Positions 1 through 5,663 of a stretch of DNA of 5,663 bases are shown in pieces; position 1 is the first letter of the stretch; every line of letters begins with the position of its first letter. The position numbers and the translations under genes are program-made. The notes beneath the pieces are model-generated. The model was not told where the DNA came from. It ran no database searches and worked only from the letters and a program-made list of their open reading frames with translations. This DNA comes from a virus (Duplodnaviria; Heunggongvirae; Uroviricota; Caudoviricetes), in the IMG/VR virus record IMGVR_UViG_2703718818_000005, positions 1 through 5,663 of that record; one strand, given 5' to 3'.

Positions 1-60
1 GGTCAGGTATCCCGTCGTGACCAGGAGCGCGCGCTGGCGTGCTGGGGAATCGACAGATAA
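1..60 (+). CDS. 3' end of an upstream gene, probably a phage endolysin (lysozyme-like C-terminus); 5' part lies outside the window
   Basis: Frame 1 reads GQVSRRDQERALACWGIDR then TAA at 58-60. The RR-x-x-ER-x-x-x-C-W-G tail resembles C-termini of lambdoid prophage lysozymes such as RrrD/R21-type, recalled from memory. Its position upstream of Rz/Rz1 fits a lysis cassette. Only 19 codons are visible, so the call is weak. Confidence 0.4.
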   Translation, partial: GQVSRRDQERALACWGIDR

Positions 61-166
61 GCAGAATATTTTGCTGAAAAATGACGTTGATCAACGCGGG
101 CAGATAACACGAAATCCTGCAAACTGGCAAAATGTAAGTGAATAAAGTCAGGCAGATTGTTTCACG

Positions 167-199
167 CAGAGGCACCGTAATGGTGCCTTTGTCATTTAT
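167..199 (+). terminator. Terminator-like hairpin downstream of the endolysin-like gene
   Basis: Inverted repeat AGGCACC (170-176) / GGTGCCT (182-188) with loop GTAAT, extendable to a 10-bp stem (167-191) with one G-U pair, followed by the T-rich run TTGTCATTTAT. The U-tract is interrupted, so this is at best a weak intrinsic terminator. Confidence 0.3.
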
Positions 200-333
200 G
201 CGCTTCGCACAAGCGTAAATAAACCAAAGAACCTTTCAGGATGAGCCCTGGTGGATAACCGGCAGTGGTCTGGTTAACCCTCTTTGGGCTGGTTATTCCT
301 GTGCGCAGGGTTCATCACTAAAAGGAATCAACC

Positions 334-1029
334 ATGAAAGAGATGATTTCTGTCGATCATGAAATATCCATGAGTAGTCTGGATTTTCTGAATAACATTA
401 TTAACCCTATCCGGGTTGAGGCAGGGAAACCACCTCATGAACCGCGTAAGTTCCTTGCAAAAATTGAGGACGAACTTGAGCTTGAGGTAACCTGGAAAAA
501 ATTCCGGTTAAACAATAACCAGACAAGAACGGCATACTATGATCTGGATTTTGACCAGATGATGCTCGTTGGCATGAGAGAGTCAAAGGCCGTTCGTCGT
601 TCTGTGCTGGCAAGGCTCAAAGCGATGCATGGTATTCAGATCCCCCGGACTTTACCTGAGGCGTTGCGATTTGCGGCAAAACTGGCAGAACAGAAAGCAG
701 TGCTGGAAAATCAACTGGCAATAGCAGCGCCGAAGGCTGAATTTGTTGATAACTATGTTGAAGCATCTGGTCTGATGGGATTCCGGGAAGTTGCTAAGTT
801 ACTCGGTATCAAAGAAACCGATTTCCGGCTGTTTTTGTTGGAGAACGGAATAATGTATCGCCTCGCTGGAAAAATGACGCCTTACTCGCATCACCTGGAT
901 GCGGGGCGGTTTAGCGTGAAAACGGGCGAGGCGGGCAATGGTCATGCTTTTACGCAGGTTAAATTCACCCCAAAAGGTGTTCAGTGGATTGCTGGTCTGC
1001 TTGCTGCATGGAGAGCTACCGCAGCATGA
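334..1029 (+). CDS. Phage antirepressor-like protein with a C-terminal KilAC (ANT) domain; N-terminal domain unassigned (possibly Rha/AntA-like)
   Basis: 231-aa ORF with ATG at 334 and an AAGGA Shine-Dalgarno 7 nt upstream. The C-terminal half (VAKLLGI...FRLFLLENGIMY...PYSHHLDAGRFSVK...FTQVKFTPKGVQWIAGLL) matches the pattern I recall for KilAC domains (AK-LG, P-x-Q/H, G-F, T-x-KG-x-x-I). Needs an HMM search to confirm. Confidence 0.75.
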   Translation: MKEMISVDHEISMSSLDFLNNIINPIRVEAGKPPHEPRKFLAKIEDELELEVTWKKFRLNNNQTRTAYYDLDFDQMMLVGMRESKAVRRSVLARLKAMHGIQIPRTLPEALRFAAKLAEQKAVLENQLAIAAPKAEFVDNYVEASGLMGFREVAKLLGIKETDFRLFLLENGIMYRLAGKMTPYSHHLDAGRFSVKTGEAGNGHAFTQVKFTPKGVQWIAGLLAAWRATAA

Positions 1030-1121
1030 AGATGATAAAAATGGACTGGAAATTTTTGCTGGTCTGGCTGATTCCGTTTTTATGGGTGGTTGCCCGGTTA
1101 ATTACTGCTATTAATGGGTAA
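1026..1121 (+). CDS. Candidate micro-ORF, 31-aa single-pass membrane peptide (MKMIKMDWKFLLVWLIPFLWVVARLITAING)
   Basis: ATG at 1026 overlaps the stop of the upstream gene (ATGA). It has a Lys-rich N-terminus followed by a ~20-residue hydrophobic helix and a TAA stop at 1119-1121. No clear Shine-Dalgarno; translational coupling would be needed. Not in the ORF track because of its size. Confidence 0.3.
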   Translation: MKMIKMDWKFLLVWLIPFLWVVARLITAING

Positions 1122-1123
1122 AG

Positions 1124-1255
1124 ATGTCAGACAAACTCATAATGCTGGCGAAGGGCCTTTGTGTAATCGTCGGTATTTCATTTTCACTAATGCTGGTTGT
1201 TCTTTTTCTTTCCATAGCCTGGATGGCGTTGAGTTCGGCAGGGCTGGTGGGGTGA
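1124..1255 (+). CDS. Candidate micro-ORF, 43-aa hydrophobic peptide (MSDKLIMLAKGLCVIVGISFSLMLVVLFLSIAWMALSSAGLVG)
   Basis: ATG at 1124 lies 2 nt after the stop of the previous micro-ORF; TGA at 1253-1255. Almost entirely hydrophobic, giving one long or two short transmembrane segments. It competes with the N-terminal part of the 86-aa track ORF 1114-1374 in another frame. Confidence 0.35.
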   Translation: MSDKLIMLAKGLCVIVGISFSLMLVVLFLSIAWMALSSAGLVG

Positions 1256-1257
1256 CA

Positions 1258-1374
1258 GTGACTGATGACGACAATTTATTTAAACAGATGAGTACTGAAT
1301 TTATTCGGGCAACGGCATTTGCCATTCGCATTGTGGCAATTGCGGTTCTAATCCGGGAAATCCGCTGGTGGTGA
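1258..1374 (+). CDS. Candidate third micro-ORF (GTG start at 1258 or ATG at 1288), amphipathic/hydrophobic peptide ending ...MSTEFIRATAFAIRIVAIAVLIREIRWW
   Basis: Same frame as the 86-aa track ORF. GGTGGGG lies just upstream of GTG 1258. Its stop TGA 1372-1374 sits 1 nt before the methylase ATG. Start and reality are uncertain. Confidence 0.2.
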   Translation: MTDDDNLFKQMSTEFIRATAFAIRIVAIAVLIREIRWW

Positions 1375-1375
1375 A

Positions 1376-2143
1376 ATGAATAATAACTCTGCAAAACCGT
1401 TTCTCCCGTGGTTAGGAGGGAAGCGTCGTCTGGCAAAACATATTCTGCCGTTATTTCCTGAGCACACTCTGTATGTGGAACCGTTCTGTGGCGGTGCGGC
1501 ACTGTTCTTTATGAAAAAACCGAGCTGCGCTGAAATCATCAACGATATAAACAGTGATATCGTTAATCTCTACCGTGTGGTGAAGTACCACCAGGAGGAA
1601 TTTTCCCGCCAGTTTCAGTGGATGCTCGCCAGTCGTGAGATGTGGAATGAGGTGATAAATCAGCACACGGAGTACATGACGGATATCCAGCGGGCTGTCC
1701 GTTTCTTTTTTATCCAGAAGTGCGCGTATGGCGGAAGAGCATACAGTCGGGCATTTGGAGTTAAAACTCACAGACCGCAGATAATCCCCGGGAATACAGA
1801 GCAGTTATTGCAGGAAGCCCGTGATCGGCTGGCGCGGGCAACTATTGAACACCTTGACTGGGAGGTCTGTATCGCACGGTATGACCGCCCGACAACGCTG
1901 TTTTACTGCGATCCTCCGTATTGGTTGGATGGTGGTTACGGCATTGATTTTTCATTCTGCAATTATGAGCGCATGGCAGAACTTGCCCGCACAATAAAAG
2001 GCAAAATGATTATATCCCTGAACGATACGCAGGAAATGAGACGATTGTTTGAGGGGATGAATATTCATCATGTTGCTCATCGTTATACTGTACCACGTGG
2101 TAAGACAAGCAGTGTCAGCGAGCTGATAATCTGCAATTTCTGA
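1376..2143 (+). CDS. Dam-family (D12 class) N6-adenine DNA methyltransferase, phage-borne orphan methylase
   Basis: 255-aa ORF. N-terminal PWLGGKRRL, AdoMet-binding motif I FCGGAALFF (about 1485-1511) and catalytic motif IV DPPY at codons 179-182 (nt 1910-1921). No restriction endonuclease partner is visible in the window. Confidence 0.9.
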   Translation: MNNNSAKPFLPWLGGKRRLAKHILPLFPEHTLYVEPFCGGAALFFMKKPSCAEIINDINSDIVNLYRVVKYHQEEFSRQFQWMLASREMWNEVINQHTEYMTDIQRAVRFFFIQKCAYGGRAYSRAFGVKTHRPQIIPGNTEQLLQEARDRLARATIEHLDWEVCIARYDRPTTLFYCDPPYWLDGGYGIDFSFCNYERMAELARTIKGKMIISLNDTQEMRRLFEGMNIHHVAHRYTVPRGKTSSVSELIICNF

Positions 2144-2151
2144 CAGGGGGC

Positions 2152-2628
2152 ATGGTGAGCATAAACCGAATTCTTTCCGCGTTTACTGTTATTCTGCTGG
2201 TGGTCTGTGGTGCGCTTAGTCTGGGGCTGAATCATTACCGCGATAACGCCATCACCTACAAAGCGCAGCGCGATAAAAAAGCCAGAGAGCTGGAACAGGC
2301 GAATGCCACCATTACTGACATGCAGGTGCGCCAGCGTGATGTTGCTGCGCTCGATGCAAAATACTCGAGGGAATTAGCCGATGCGAGAGCTGAAAATGAA
2401 ACTCTGCGCGCTGATGTTGCCGCTGGTCGTAAGCGCCTGCGGATCAACGCCACCTGCTCCGGTACCGTGCGTGAAGCCACCGGCACCTCCGGCGTGGGCA
2501 ATGATGCCGCCGTCGAACTCTCTCCGGTTGCTGGACGAAACGTTCTCGGTATCAGAGACGGAATCATCAGCGACCTGGCTGCATTGAGAATGCTTCAGGA
2601 ATATATCCGCACTCAGTGTATTAACTAG
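2152..2628 (+). CDS. Rz: Rz-like i-spanin (inner-membrane spanin subunit)
   Basis: 158 aa. An N-terminal transmembrane helix (ILSAFTVILLVVCGALSLGL) is followed by NHYRDNAITYKAQRDK...MQVRQRDVAALDAKY...DVAAGRKRL, which is near-colinear with lambda Rz as recalled. GGGGG Shine-Dalgarno before ATG 2152, 8 nt after the methylase stop. Confidence 0.92.
   Translation: MVSINRILSAFTVILLVVCGALSLGLNHYRDNAITYKAQRDKKARELEQANATITDMQVRQRDVAALDAKYSRELADARAENETLRADVAAGRKRLRINATCSGTVREATGTSGVGNDAAVELSPVAGRNVLGIRDGIISDLAALRMLQEYIRTQCIN
2381..2587 (+). CDS. Rz1: Rz1-like o-spanin (outer-membrane lipoprotein), embedded in the +1 frame of Rz
   Basis: 68-aa ORF wholly inside Rz. Signal peptide MRELKMKLCALMLPLVVSAC with lipobox V-S-A-C (Cys codon 2438-2440), then a proline-rich mature part CGSTPPAPVPCVKPPAPPAW that parallels lambda Rz1 CVKPPPPPAW. 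GAGGGA lies 8 nt upstream of ATG 2381; ATG 2396 is an alternative start. Confidence 0.85.
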   Translation: MRELKMKLCALMLPLVVSACGSTPPAPVPCVKPPAPPAWAMMPPSNSLRLLDETFSVSETESSATWLH

Positions 2629-2651
2629 TATTTTTGTTATTCGGAGAATGC

Positions 2652-2864
2652 ATGAAGAAATTACTGGTAACCGTAAAGCCTTTTCAGGGAACAATTCCGT
2701 TCCGTATTTTGCAGCGTGGTCGTGTTCTTGTTGAAGGTTCGTTCAGTGGTAAATGTACGCAATTACACTCCCGGACCTTTCAGGTGAATGCCACGAATGA
2801 AGAGCTAACCGTTGAGTGTACGATGAATGCCGCTAAATGCCGCATGGTATCCGCTGCATTTTGA
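2652..2864 (+). CDS. Hypothetical 70-aa protein between the spanins and cos (MKKLLVTVKPFQGTIPFRILQRGRVLVEGSFSGKCTQLHSRTFQVNATNEELTVECTMNAAKCRMVSAAF)
   Basis: ATG at 2652 with a GGAGAA Shine-Dalgarno 6 nt upstream; the track ORF begins at an in-frame TTG at 2634. No family recognised by eye. Three Cys, no obvious signal peptide. Confidence 0.5.
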   Translation: MKKLLVTVKPFQGTIPFRILQRGRVLVEGSFSGKCTQLHSRTFQVNATNEELTVECTMNAAKCRMVSAAF

Positions 2865-3087
2865 GCGACCTTATTATCCATGCGCGGTATTGTCGCCGTA
2901 TTCCCGTATTAACAGAGACCGCAGCCCGACAGGGAGACTCCTCTGCGCGAGTGTGCGGGGATAATCAAAAACGATACACACCGGGGTTTACCGCGTTAAC
3001 GGAGCGCGGCGTTGTCCCCTCATGGTCGCTGGTCCGGTGCGATGGTGGAAGAAACTGGATTTTGTTGCAACTGATAACCATTATCAT

Positions 3088-3117
3088 TTTCGCGGGTCCT
3101 TTCCGGCGATCCGGGCC
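3088..3117. other. cosQ-like cos-proximal segment upstream of cosN
   Basis: TTTCGCGGGTCCTTTCCGGCGATCCGGGCC is near-identical to the lambda right-end sequence TTTACGGGTCCTTTCCGGTGATCCGACAGG that I recall preceding cosN, where cosQ resides. Exact cosQ boundaries are not determinable from memory. Confidence 0.4.
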
Positions 3118-3139
3118 GTTACGGGGCGGCGACCTCGCG
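3118..3139. other. cosN, terminase nicking site; 12-nt cohesive end GGGCGGCGACCT at 3124-3135
   Basis: GTTACGGGGCGGCGACCTCGCG matches the lambda cosN core as recalled, and the 12-mer at 3124-3135 equals the lambda cohesive end. The following ~25 nt (CGCGCGTTTTCACTATTTATGAGATTTT) also track the lambda left end. It sits immediately upstream of a Nu1/A terminase pair. Confidence 0.85.
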
Positions 3140-3174
3140 CGTTTTCACTATTTATGAGATTTTTTGAGGGGGGT

Positions 3175-3183
3175 GGTTGTTGT
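3175..3183 (+). repeat. R3-like repeat GGTTGTTGT
   Basis: Exact 9-mer, about 50 nt to the right of the cohesive-end start, analogous in position to lambda R3. Confidence 0.5.
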
Positions 3184-3233
3184 TTAATTGTTTGGTATAT
3201 CTAATTGATAAGTAAGGTGAAAATAAAATAAAT

Positions 3234-3242
3234 ACAACAACC
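3234..3242 (-). repeat. R2-like repeat, inverted copy (ACAACAACC on the top strand)
   Basis: Exact reverse complement of GGTTGTTGT, 59 bp from the first copy. Confidence 0.5.
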
Positions 3243-3311
3243 TTACGATGTGTTTTGATGTCGTCAATGCGAAAAATGTCAATGATATCAAATGGTTTTG
3301 CAAAAACACAT

Positions 3312-3320
3312 GGTTGTTGT
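3312..3320 (+). repeat. R1-like repeat GGTTGTTGT
   Basis: Exact 9-mer, 33 bp upstream of the proposed Nu1 start codon. Confidence 0.5.
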
Positions 3321-3352
3321 ATCGCTTTTTATCGATGACTTATGGAGAGGAG

Positions 3353-3859
3353 ATGGCCTTTTTATTGAATAAAAGTGATATGGCCTCCTCCATCGGTATC
3401 TCTGTTCAGGCATTTGATAAATGGGGCGTTCCTCCTGTTGAACGTCGGGGGAGGGAAGTTTTATATGACGTTAAAACTGTACTGGAGATAGATCGCGAGC
3501 GGCGACAACACAATCAGAGAACACCTGATGACGGGGGAGAACTGGAGGAAAGGCTGCTTCGGGCCAGAGCTGAACTGACAGAAGAACAGGCTGTAGCTCA
3601 AAAACTTAAAAATCAGGTAACCGAAGGTAAGCTCATTGATTCAGACTTCTGCGTTTTCGCCCTCAGCAAACTGGCGATGGCATTGTCCAGTACGCTTGAT
3701 TCCATTCCGTTATCCATGCAGCGACAGTTCCCGGATTTAACGCCACGTCATATTGACCATCTGAAAACCCTTATTGCAAAGGGCGCAAATCAGTGTGCGC
3801 GGGCAGGGGATAAATTACCGGATTTGCTGGATGAATATATCAGAGCAACAACTGAATAA
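3353..3859 (+). CDS. nu1: Terminase small subunit, Nu1-like
   Basis: 168 aa from ATG 3353, preceded by GGAGAGGAG. Aligns by eye with lambda Nu1: EVLYD, FCVFALSKLAMALSSTLDSIPLSMQRQFPDLTPRHIDHLK versus lambda FCTFVLSRIAGEIASILDGLPLSVQRRFPELENRHVDFLK, and an EYI motif near the C-terminus. The track ORF start at 3248 is an in-frame upstream extension running into cosB; 3335 is another in-frame ATG without a Shine-Dalgarno. Confidence 0.88.
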   Translation: MAFLLNKSDMASSIGISVQAFDKWGVPPVERRGREVLYDVKTVLEIDRERRQHNQRTPDDGGELEERLLRARAELTEEQAVAQKLKNQVTEGKLIDSDFCVFALSKLAMALSSTLDSIPLSMQRQFPDLTPRHIDHLKTLIAKGANQCARAGDKLPDLLDEYIRATTE

Positions 3860-5663
3860 TATGATGGCTGCCGTTTCGGTTGCGCTGCAGCCTCTGGTCA
3901 GAGTTGTACCGATGACGGCAGTTGAATGGGCTGATCAAAATTATTATTTGCCTAAAGACTCCTCATACGGTGACGGCGAATGGAAAACGCTGCCATTCCA
4001 GATCGCCATCATGAACAGCATGGGGAATGATCAGATCCGCACTGTTAATCTGATTAAATCTGCCCGTGTTGGCTATACAAAGATGTTGCTGGGGGTGGTC
4101 GGGTATTTTATTGAGCATAAATCCCGAAACAGTCTGCTTTTTCAGCCCACGGATTCTGCCGCTGAAGATTTTATGAAGTCTCACGTGGAGGCGACGATTC
4201 GGGACGTGGCATGCCTGAAAGATCTTTCCCCGTGGCTGGGTCGTAAACATCGTGACAATACTCTCACGCTGAAACGCTTTTCATCGGGGGTGGGCTTCTG
4301 GTGCCTGGGTGGTGCGGCAGCAAAAAACTACCGTGAAAAATCCGTGGACGTGGTCTGCTATGACGAACTTTCCTCGTTCGAGCCGGATGTCGAAAAAGAG
4401 GGCTCGCCAACCCTGCTGGGGGATAAGCGTATTGAGGGGTCGGTGTGGCCAAAATCCATTCGCGGCTCGACGCCTAAAATCAAAGGCTCCTGCCAGATCG
4501 AAAAAGCGGCCAACGAGTCGGCGCATTTCATGCGTTTTTATGTGCCCTGCCCGCACTGTGGGGAGGAGCAGTATCTGAAATTTGGCGATGAATCCACGCC
4601 TTTTGGCCTTAAATGGGAGAAGGACAGCCCCGAAAGCGTTTTCTACCTCTGTGAACATCATGGCTGCGTGATCCATCAGTCTGAGCTTGACCAGAGCAAC
4701 GGGCGGTGGATCTGTGAAAATACGGGGATGTGGACCCGTGACGGTCTGACGTTTTTCAGCGCCGCGGATAATGAAATTCCGCCGCCGCGCTCCATCACGT
4801 TCCACATCTGGACGGCGTACAGTCCGTTCACCACCTGGGTACAGATAGTCTATGACTGGCTGGATGCACTGAAAGATCCCAACGGCGTGAAAACCTTTGT
4901 GAACACCACGCTGGGCGAGACCTGGGAAGAGGCCGTGGGCGAAAAACTCGATCACCAGGTACTGATGGATAAGGTTGTGCGTTACACGGCGGCGGTGCCT
5001 GCCCGGGTGGTTTATCTGACGGCGGGCATTGACTCGCAGCGAAACCGTTTTGAGATGTATGTCTGGGGATGGGCACCGGGAGAGGAAGCCTTTCTGGTGG
5101 ATAAAATCATCATTATGGGGCGTCCCGATGAGGAAGAGACGCTGTTACGTGTGGATGCGGCGATCAACAAAAAATACCGTCATGCAGACGGAACCGAAAT
5201 GACCATTTCCCGTGTCTGCTGGGACACCGGGGGGATCGATGGCGAAATCGTTTATCAGCGGTCAAAAAAACACGGTGTTTTCCGGGTGCTGCCGGTAAAA
5301 GGCGCATCTGTCTATGGCAAGCCGGTGATCACCATGCCAAAAACCCGCAATCAGCGGGGCGTGTATCTGTGTGAAGTGGGGACGGACACCGCAAAAGAAA
5401 TTCTCTATGCCCGTATGAAAGCCGATCCCACGCCTGCGGATGAAGCCACGTCGTATGCCATCCGTTTTCCTGATGATCCGGAGATTTTTTCGCAGACAGA
5501 GGCGCAGCAACTGGTGGCGGAGGAGCTGGTGGAGAAGTGGGAAAAAGGAAAGATGCGTCTGTTGTGGGATAACAAAAAGCGGCGTAACGAAGCGCTGGAC
5601 TGCCTGGTGTATGCCTACGCGGCATTACGTGTGTCTGTGCAACGCTGGCAGCTTGATCTGGCT
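3831..5663 (+). CDS. A: Terminase large subunit, gpA-like; 3' end beyond the window
   Basis: Open frame from ATG 3831 to the window end with no stop (611 codons). It starts MNISEQQ (lambda A starts MNISNSQ) and contains the P-loop-like KSARVGYTK (nt 4056-4082), VDVVCYDEL, the Cys/His cluster CPHCGEEQYLKFGD...FYLCEHHGC, HIWTAYSPFTTWVQIV and KKRRNEALDC, all colinear with lambda gpA as recalled. It overlaps the Nu1 3' end by 29 nt. Confidence 0.93.
   Translation, partial: MNISEQQLNNMMAAVSVALQPLVRVVPMTAVEWADQNYYLPKDSSYGDGEWKTLPFQIAIMNSMGNDQIRTVNLIKSARVGYTKMLLGVVGYFIEHKSRNSLLFQPTDSAAEDFMKSHVEATIRDVACLKDLSPWLGRKHRDNTLTLKRFSSGVGFWCLGGAAAKNYREKSVDVVCYDELSSFEPDVEKEGSPTLLGDKRIEGSVWPKSIRGSTPKIKGSCQIEKAANESAHFMRFYVPCPHCGEEQYLKFGDESTPFGLKWEKDSPESVFYLCEHHGCVIHQSELDQSNGRWICENTGMWTRDGLTFFSAADNEIPPPRSITFHIWTAYSPFTTWVQIVYDWLDALKDPNGVKTFVNTTLGETWEEAVGEKLDHQVLMDKVVRYTAAVPARVVYLTAGIDSQRNRFEMYVWGWAPGEEAFLVDKIIIMGRPDEEETLLRVDAAINKKYRHADGTEMTISRVCWDTGGIDGEIVYQRSKKHGVFRVLPVKGASVYGKPVITMPKTRNQRGVYLCEVGTDTAKEILYARMKADPTPADEATSYAIRFPDDPEIFSQTEAQQLVAEELVEKWEKGKMRLLWDNKKRRNEALDCLVYAYAALRVSVQRWQLDLA

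Follow-up and report, generated by a model that had tools for sequence, protein, structure and literature searches.

The window analysed here is the whole stretch of 5,663 nucleotides (nt) that makes up positions 1 to 5,663 of the IMG/VR virus record IMGVR_UViG_2703718818_000005 (Caudoviricetes), and it represents the late region of a lambdoid E. coli prophage, with all of the listed genes on the + strand. Sequence comparison confirms that the open reading frame (ORF) at 1376..2143 (+), which runs from an ATG start to a TGA stop and encodes 255 amino acids (aa), is a real and intact D12-class adenine methyltransferase gene, far beyond a chance match. The gene has no restriction partner and is probably a promoter-less insert at the former start of the spanin gene Rz. 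We infer its activity, late timing, target and anti-restriction benefit, and we consider it fairly probable that the product is an active orphan Dam-fold adenine methyltransferase that is made late and modifies progeny DNA before packaging, as a protection against restriction. As a phage gene it is of an ordinary kind; what is rare is its position, at the Rz start within the lysis cassette.

Nearly the entire Pfam D12 profile (PF02086, MethyltransfD12; positions 1-252 of 253) is matched by the methylase with E = 4.4e-27 (95.9 bits against a cutoff of 22), and the PHROG profile phrog_56 and the PADLOC Type II methyltransferase model (MTase_II) match the protein with E = 3.2e-90 and 3.8e-92, respectively. 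The NCBIfam 'dam subfamily' model TIGR00571 is barely passed (115.2 bits; cutoff 114.85). By these four matches the protein is a Dam-family adenine methyltransferase, as an earlier sequence-only reading of this DNA had called it, provided that the label is not taken to mean an ortholog of the GATC enzyme Dam. The same reading had described the D12 motifs as complete, and both of the motifs that it named, FCGGAALFF (aa 37-45) and DPPY, were located. All of the cofactor and catalytic residues are invariant in a 29-sequence family alignment in which motif conservation was scored: W12, G14, G15 and K16 of the WLGGK motif, E35, F37 and G39 of motif I, N56, D57 and N59 of motif II, and D179, P180, P181 and Y182 of motif IV. 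The motifs follow the alpha order, with WLGGK, EPFCGGA (aa 35-41), NDIN and the hairpin region (aa 113-146) preceding DPPY, which is the adenine-type signature of motif IV. The gene is already known insofar as a 100%-identical copy in E. coli strain 48 is automatically annotated in RefSeq as 'DNA adenine methylase' (WP_021574144.1); what is new is its recognition as a rare member of the orphan phage Dam-fold methyltransferases.

Apart from the terminase, no other ORF in the window matches the defence or nuclease models of PADLOC and Pfam. No endonuclease was found in the six loci with a near-identical (1-aa variant) representative protein, in the four loci with an 87% allele, or in the Mu-like prophage homologs and phage homologs examined. 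E. coli strain 48 carries a 49-kb Stx1c prophage (NZ_CP166879.1, 3462000-3511000) in which the methylase DNA is 100.0% identical to that of the window, and neither a restriction gene nor another annotated methyltransferase was found across it. The absence of a nearby restriction enzyme gene, claimed at first for the window, thus extends to the related loci and to this whole prophage, and the view that the gene is not part of a restriction-modification system stands, no cognate endonuclease having been found. At the level of gene content, the methylase is confirmed as an orphan. Other genes of the Stx1c prophage of strain 48 encode a Hok/Gef protein and a HicAB toxin-antitoxin pair.

The insertion can be followed to the nucleotide. 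A 28-aa ORF ends so close upstream that a single nt separates its stop codon from the methylase ATG, and after the methylase stop 8 nt follow before Rz begins anew. The PhiR5_1 homolog of the 28-aa ORF ends TGGTGGTGATATGAAC, in which the ATG is the Rz start, and the window version ends TGGTGGTGAAATGAAT, in which the ATG is the methylase start, so that the methylase ATG of the window occupies the exact position of the Rz ATG in PhiR5_1 (window 1288-1378; PhiR5_1 locus L021, 1511-1600). At the right junction (window 2141-2160), TTCTGACAGGGGGCATGGTGAGC creates the new Rz start. In an 'empty' locus (L002) the methylase is absent and a 43-aa ORF directly abuts Rz, and in the variant locus of E. coli JNEC-KY176 the element GGGGGrTATG stands at both junctions. 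The 28-aa ORF of strain 48 is annotated in RefSeq as a truncated pseudogene; from its sequence this call looks like a mis-annotation.

A search for a sigma-70-like promoter upstream of the methylase and for a terminator-like hairpin downstream of it found neither. The guanine-plus-cytosine (GC) content of the cassette (0.475) equals that of its flanks, and so gives no compositional sign of a recent foreign origin. One trait of a 'moron' is seen, namely the presence or absence of the methylase between genes that are adjacent in relatives. A classical autonomous moron was nevertheless rejected, since no promoter or terminator of its own was found, the GC content equals that of the flanks and the intergenic gaps measure 1 nt and 8 nt. 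As its sequence context suggests, the methylase is probably a promoter-less insert that borrows the late transcript, with translational coupling. In the Stx1c prophage of strain 48 the co-directional order is Q, stx1c, esterase, holin, lysozyme, antirepressor, small ORF, methylase, Rz and terminase. The sequence-only reading had placed the methylase just upstream of the spanins and cos, and in fact Rz and Rz1 directly follow it and an exact lambda cosN lies at 3124-3135, about 1 kb downstream of the methylase and about 110 bp upstream of Nu1; lambda itself has cosN at a like distance upstream of Nu1. Late, Q-dependent expression of the methylase would be the natural inference, because the splice is seamless and lacks a promoter and a terminator, because cosN is 1 kb downstream, and because in strain 48 the gene stands after Q, stx, holin and lysozyme. 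This supports the proposal of the sequence-only reading that the enzyme would be made in time to modify progeny DNA.

The distribution was surveyed in 5,426 complete E. coli genomes and 50,697 phage records. No match to the methylase DNA was found by megablast in the phage records, and among the genomes it is at least 99% identical in three and 80-90% identical in two. The flanks occur in 4,475 of the genomes, most of them without the methylase, and homologs of 60-80%, mostly the Mu-like prophage gene of sequence type 131 (ST131), occur in 538. The lambdoid backbones that harbour the cassette differ in packaging module, of which there are at least four: Nu1/gpA in the window, DUF1441/gpA in the loci with the near-identical representative protein, a 933W-like podovirus module in the strain 48 prophage, and HNH with Terminase_2/TerL in the loci with the 87% allele. 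With so many packaging modules, the methylase evidently travels with the lysis cassette by recombination. We count it in favour of selection for the methylase, and of its proposed role, that independent genomes hold intact copies with 100% identity and that the gene lies in several backbones with different terminase types.

The protein is predicted to have a Dam-type fold. Its AlphaFold (AF2) model has a predicted local distance difference test score (pLDDT) of 78.6 and a predicted template modelling score (pTM) of 0.80, and the top 26 PDB matches of the model are EcoDam, DpnM, Mcbe1 and T4Dam, every one at a probability of 1.00; EcoDam superposes with a template modelling (TM) score of about 0.76 and T4Dam with one of about 0.66. 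The family profile matches DpnM with E = 2.5e-24 and EcoDam with 1.5e-22. The methylase thus shares its fold and motif order with three GATC enzymes of solved structure, E. coli Dam, S. pneumoniae DpnM (M1.DpnII) and phage T4 Dam. However, it is only about 24% identical to EcoDam and fails the Dam equivalog model (NCBIfam NF008152; 72 bits against a cutoff of 441), for which reasons we judge from its sequence that it is not a Dam ortholog. In EcoDam, residues K9, L122, R124, P134 and Y138 reportedly read GATC, according to the structures of Horton et al. K9 is replaced by proline in the methylase, and for L122, P134 and Y138 none of the alignments shows a conserved counterpart; R121 (K or R in the family) pairs with EcoDam R124 in a DpnM-guided alignment, but not in an EcoDam-guided one. 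The recognition hairpin is about 3 residues shorter than the EcoDam hairpin 118-139, and the loop after DPPY is shorter by 7. In its predicted reading elements, therefore, the methylase appears clearly to differ from canonical Dam in the way it reads DNA.

The target sequence, as the sequence-only reading had said, cannot be read from the DNA, since the pLDDT of the model is below 50 in the hairpin (aa 118-133) and the hairpin alignments disagree with one another. The 25 GATC sites of the window compare with 29.8 expected, in a stretch of 5.6 kb that is too short for palindrome counts to be informative. No recognition site for any member of the subfamily was found in the accessible literature, and in the single-molecule real-time (SMRT) methylome papers on Hamiltonella and Burkholderia no clear member is given a motif. 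GAT-containing sites are the targets of most characterised D12 enzymes. A short GAT-containing site, with GATC the likeliest form of it, is therefore our best guess, although it is one about as apt to fail as to hold; by this analogy GATC would still be the single most likely target, with a chance that is at best about even.

The two alleles of the clade diverge in patches. The window gene was compared with that of E. coli JNEC-KY176 (L003, 4007-4774), which shares about 80% aa identity with it and belongs to the same clade as the representative (P0002) of the 87% cluster. Outside three patches the alleles are 91-93% identical in DNA. In the first patch (aa 113-146) the nucleotide identity falls to 0.65 and 18 of 34 residues differ, in the second (aa 183-192) it is 0.57, and in the third (aa 226-255) it is 0.71, with 14 of 30 residues different. 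Silent changes are raised in the patches (6 of 16 codons, against 7 of 56 elsewhere), which points to their origin by recombinational replacement, rather than by point mutation. The patches coincide with the recognition hairpin, the loop after DPPY and the C-terminal hairpin, and of the whole protein these three segments are the likeliest to touch DNA. The pattern would allow the alleles to differ in target. It is a speculative and rather doubtful extension of this that DNA-reading elements are swapped as modules, which would make the gene a specificity-shuffling anti-restriction device expressed with the lysis genes; if so, the target would vary among near-identical genes of different lambdoid and Stx prophages and might be relaxed or other than GATC.

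The role that we favour would arise in the following way. A lambdoid prophage would have acquired the promoter-less methylase exactly at the former Rz start, within the R...Rz cassette. After induction, the gene would be transcribed only on the Q-antiterminated late (pR') transcript, with its translation coupled to the preceding 28-aa ORF, so that the methylase would appear together with holin, endolysin, spanins and terminase. The concatemeric products of phage replication would then be adenine-methylated before terminase cleaves at cos and packages them, and the virions would enter the next host pre-methylated, escaping restriction systems that cut the unmethylated cognate site. If the target is GATC, the gain would lie in completing a methylation that the host leaves partial, for in lambda virions host Dam has methylated only about 50% of the GATC sites (PMC3299994).

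Several points weigh against this role. A short terminator-like hairpin lies inside the gene at 1689-1703, though at chance frequency, and the homolog of Burkholderia phage phi1026b is clearly expressed in the lysogen, at 21,563 reads per kilobase per million mapped reads (RPKM; PMC2920897), so that late-only expression is not a rule of the family. In the accessible literature no experiment was found on the window protein or on the target of any relative in the subfamily. Should the target be GATC, the phage would gain in a Dam+ host no more than the completion of methylation, nucleases that depend on N6-methyladenine would cut the methylated phage DNA, and Dam activity is reported to trigger abortive infection by retron-Sen2 (bioRxiv 10.1101/2020.06.22.160242).

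Among the alternatives, the one that survives best, although we think it unlikely, is a relaxed or non-specific adenine methyltransferase, a Dam-fold analogue of Mu Mom, Hia5 and M.EcoGII that would give blanket protection against many restriction systems. Members of the subfamily occupy the mom position in several Mu-like phages, and the one in Pseudomonas phage B3 is paired with the regulator Com; the phage ARM81ld has an unrelated non-specific methylase and a Com-like gene directly before its lysis genes (PMC7556043), so that promiscuous enzymes do occupy this niche, and Hia5-type enzymes show that an alpha architecture can be promiscuous (PMC3299994; PMC5778455). The shortened hairpin and the missing equivalents of EcoDam K9, L122 and P134 would also suit a relaxed enzyme. 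Yet the hairpin residues F118-G-G-K/R and F127-G128 are nearly invariant, as expected of a defined contact, and no sequence kinship with the characterised non-specific enzymes was found (phiP27 L24, E = 0.83). According to Drozdz et al., moreover, the 1,000 nearest relatives of Hia5 do not include B3 ORF48, and Com-like ORFs were not found upstream of the window gene or of its ST131, Enterobacterales Mu-like, phiE125 and VP882 homologs. A pairing with Com, which might have pointed to a toxic promiscuous enzyme, is limited to B3, and no sign of promiscuity was seen for the window methylase.

The methylase might instead have its main role in the lysogen, where it would regulate host or prophage genes epigenetically or shield the host chromosome as a 'vaccine'. 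In lysogens the phi1026b homolog is expressed independently of the neighbouring structural genes (PMC2920897), and a prophage methylase, of this or another family, is needed for lysogeny of a Burkholderia prophage (bioRxiv 10.1101/2020.03.09.983379). However, the window gene is spliced between late genes and has no promoter-like site of its own, and M.EcoMIV, a probable homolog, shows a low transcript level and no motif in the lysogen; we regard a mainly lysogenic role as quite improbable. An inactive or decaying passenger gene, which the rarity of the methylase (five of the 5,426 genomes) and the RefSeq pseudogene beside it might suggest, is very unlikely: the frame is full-length and none of its catalytic or cofactor residues is lost, unrelated strains and several phage backbones carry identical DNA, and the 'pseudogene' is the 28-aa ORF that precedes Rz in other phages. 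Methylation of cytosine N4 in place of adenine N6, brought up by the structural neighbour 7m6b 'Mcbe1', which would probably be the alpha-class N4-cytosine enzyme M.CbeI, is extremely unlikely for a protein with the adenine-type DPPY, the closest sequence and structure matches of which are all adenine enzymes.

The features of the window are collected in Table 1. Its left end is the tail of the lysozyme region, which is followed by the antirepressor gene, and the start of gpA would be MNISEQQ, by analogy with lambda gpA. The window is a mosaic: the part with the lysis and antirepressor genes (1-3059) is about 96% identical to Stx1a-converting phages and the terminase part (3913-5663) about 92% identical in DNA to phage 21, and no phage record covers more than 64% of the whole. 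An ORF of 86 aa (1114-1374) matches phrog_3246 over its full length (E = 2e-36), but over its first half it shares sequence with the 43-aa ORF, read in another frame, and it ends in the 28 aa of the small pre-Rz ORF, so phrog_3246 may have been built on a mis-called fusion of two tiny genes. Of the 291 positions of the profile phrog_2571, in which function is unassigned, the 76-aa ORF after Rz matches 96-169 alone, and it may be a truncated remnant; in related loci Rz is followed by a similar gene of 74 aa. Scans of the window for Rfam families and for tRNAs gave no matches.

Table 1. Genes, sites and methylase motifs in the window
Feature	Position	Strand	Basis
Antirepressor, KilAC domain; late region upstream of the cassette	334..1029	+	Pfam ANT 2.7e-28
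Hydrophobic small ORF, 43 aa, lambdoid lysis region; part of the backbone and not of the cassette	1124..1255	+	ORF; annotated as a hypothetical protein and abutting Rz in 'empty' locus L002
28-aa membrane-like small ORF (MSTEFIRATAFAIRIVAIAVLIREIRWW*)	1288..1374	+	Homologous ORF precedes Rz in PhiR5_1
Orphan D12-class (alpha-type, Dam-fold) N6-adenine DNA methyltransferase gene, 255 aa	1376..2143	+	ORF, profile matches
N-terminal WLGGK motif, aa 12-16; cofactor and DNA loop, equivalent to EcoDam W10-K14	1409..1423	+	Aligns to EcoDam WAGGK
Motif I, S-adenosylmethionine (AdoMet) binding, EPFCGGAALFF, aa 35-45	1478..1510	+	Aligns to EcoDam EPFVGAGSVFL
Motif II, NDIN, aa 56-59; acidic residue equivalent to EcoDam D54	1541..1552	+	Aligns to EcoDam ADIN
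Predicted target-recognition hairpin region, aa 113-146 (patch 1)	1712..1813	+	Aligns to EcoDam hairpin 118-139
Motif IV, catalytic DPPY, aa 179-182	1910..1921	+	GAT CCT CCG TAT read directly
Loop after DPPY, aa 183-192 (patch 2)	1922..1951	+	Alignment
C-terminal beta-hairpin, aa 226-255 (patch 3)	2051..2140	+	Strands 229-238 and 244-253 in model
Rz i-spanin	2152..2628	+	Pfam Phage_lysis 3.2e-39
Rz1 o-spanin, embedded in Rz	2381..2587	+	Pfam Rz1 6.8e-21
76-aa ORF after Rz	2634-2864	+	phrog_2571 partial match
cosN, exact lambda-type cohesive end GGGCGGCGACCT	3124..3135	+	0 mismatches
Terminase small subunit Nu1	3248..3859	+	Pfam Phage_Nu1 2.9e-21
Terminase large subunit gpA, 5' part, runs off the window	3831..5663	+	GpA_ATPase 1.1e-53, GpA_nuclease 6.1e-71

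The nearest relatives of the methylase form a D12 subfamily of temperate phages, with identities of 50-58%. It includes the methylase of the Mu-like transposable prophages of Enterobacterales (P0117; 56-58% identity; present in more than 2,600 blocks of the collection and in Klebsiella phage KP12), the enzyme of the ST131 prophage Phi2 (56%), those of Vibrio phage VP882 and Halomonas phage phiHAP-1 (50-55%), the 'Dam' ORF48 of Pseudomonas phage B3 (50%), and also Burkholderia phiE125 gp27 and phi1026b (50-55%), Burkholderia KS9 and Shewanella MuM16-1 p50. The Phi2 enzyme is very probably M.EcoMIV (EC958_1101), the JJ2434 locus being equated with the latter from strain type and position. In phiE125 the homolog lies after Rz/Rz1 and in VP882 it closes the tail operon; in B3 it stands with Com among the tail (late) genes, in MuM16-1 at the Mu right end (the mom position) and in Salmonella after a Gin-like invertase at the prophage end; genes of the subfamily are thus usually found at late-operon ends or in the Mu mom position. 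A mom-type module under the control of Com was rejected for the window gene, which has no Com zinc-finger ORF, Com being confined to B3; the ORFs upstream of the methylase encode the 43-aa and 28-aa hydrophobic peptides, which have no cysteine pairs.

A leader of about 150 nt is conserved upstream of the Mu-like homologs of ST131 and other Enterobacterales (L025, 5800-5975; L012, 5800-6000), in which spurious ORFs translate alike (...KERPAR...SRPRFSQSRET). It is absent from the window and may serve to regulate the Mu-like prophage gene. The phage vB_BpuM-ZY1 (OR820920.1, 690-1436), the recorded host of which is Bacillus pumilus, encodes a protein with 54.6% identity to the window methylase; with an identity as close as that of the proteobacterial phage homologs, it represents either a very wide horizontal spread or a host mis-assignment.

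Several phage methylases that stand in comparable places belong elsewhere. The OS31_p25 gene of Serratia closely precedes a lysis cassette, and the authors who described it give phiP27 L24 and 'many Escherichia phages' as its homologs (PMC7556043). Kinship of the window methylase with the non-specific OS31_p25, ARM81ld_p56 and phiP27 L24 was ruled out, because these are beta-class proteins of about 350 aa without similarity to it, the BLASTP comparison with L24 showing only DPPY in common. The GATC 'Dam' of ARM81mr, a 192-aa mini-Dam, is unrelated as well. Hia5, Hin1523 and Nma1821 are set apart from the window methylase by way of the published report on B3 ORF48, rather than by direct comparison. 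M.EcoGV is listed as a 'Dam homolog, GATC' on Stx2 prophages and is probably of a different family, as the leading organism groups among the tblastn matches do not include Stx2-converting phages; the paper on M.EcoGII gives no description of it.

Orphan phage methylases are a known form of counter-defence, and the window gene alone changes little in this respect. The subfamily, however, is widespread (about 10% of the complete E. coli genomes, including ST131), and a single determined target would serve to annotate thousands of genes. The rare pair of lambdoid/Stx alleles, which differ almost only in the probable DNA-contact segments, offers a natural pair for the study of target change in the Dam fold, and the methylase may affect the host range of Stx-converting phages across restriction barriers.

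Compared with known systems, the methylase most resembles M.EcoMIV and the Mu-like enzymes of Enterobacterales, with which it shares full-length identity of 56-58%, size, motifs and a short hairpin, and like M.EcoMIV it is an orphan borne by a prophage. Unlike the window gene, that of M.EcoMIV belongs to a transposable Mu-like prophage, where it lies on the opposite strand with the repressor on one side and the lysis genes on the other, and this type of gene has its own upstream leader; the hairpins are identical at only 4 of 20 positions over aa 121-140, and the M.EcoMIV type is present in about 10% of complete E. coli genomes, in contrast to about 0.1% for the window clade. In the EC958 lysogen the M.EcoMIV transcript was low and no motif could be assigned, and Forde et al. 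report no known recognition site for homologs more than 65% identical to it (PMC4659465). B3 ORF48, phiE125 gp27/phi1026b, VP882 and phiHAP-1 agree with the window gene in being orphans at late-operon ends or near lysis genes, but they belong to other hosts and other phage types, and B3 has the translational regulator Com, which the window lacks; of the VP882 methylase, secondary sources say only that it is functional. Finally, Mu Mom, Hia5/Hin1523 and the group of M.EcoGII, ARM81ld_p56 and phiP27 L24 are, like the window gene, nuclease-less adenine modifiers of phages in a late or lysis-proximal position, although Mom is not a methyltransferase; modifiers of the Mom, Hia5 and M.EcoGII types are thought to protect progeny DNA (PMC3299994; PMC7556043; PMC5778455).

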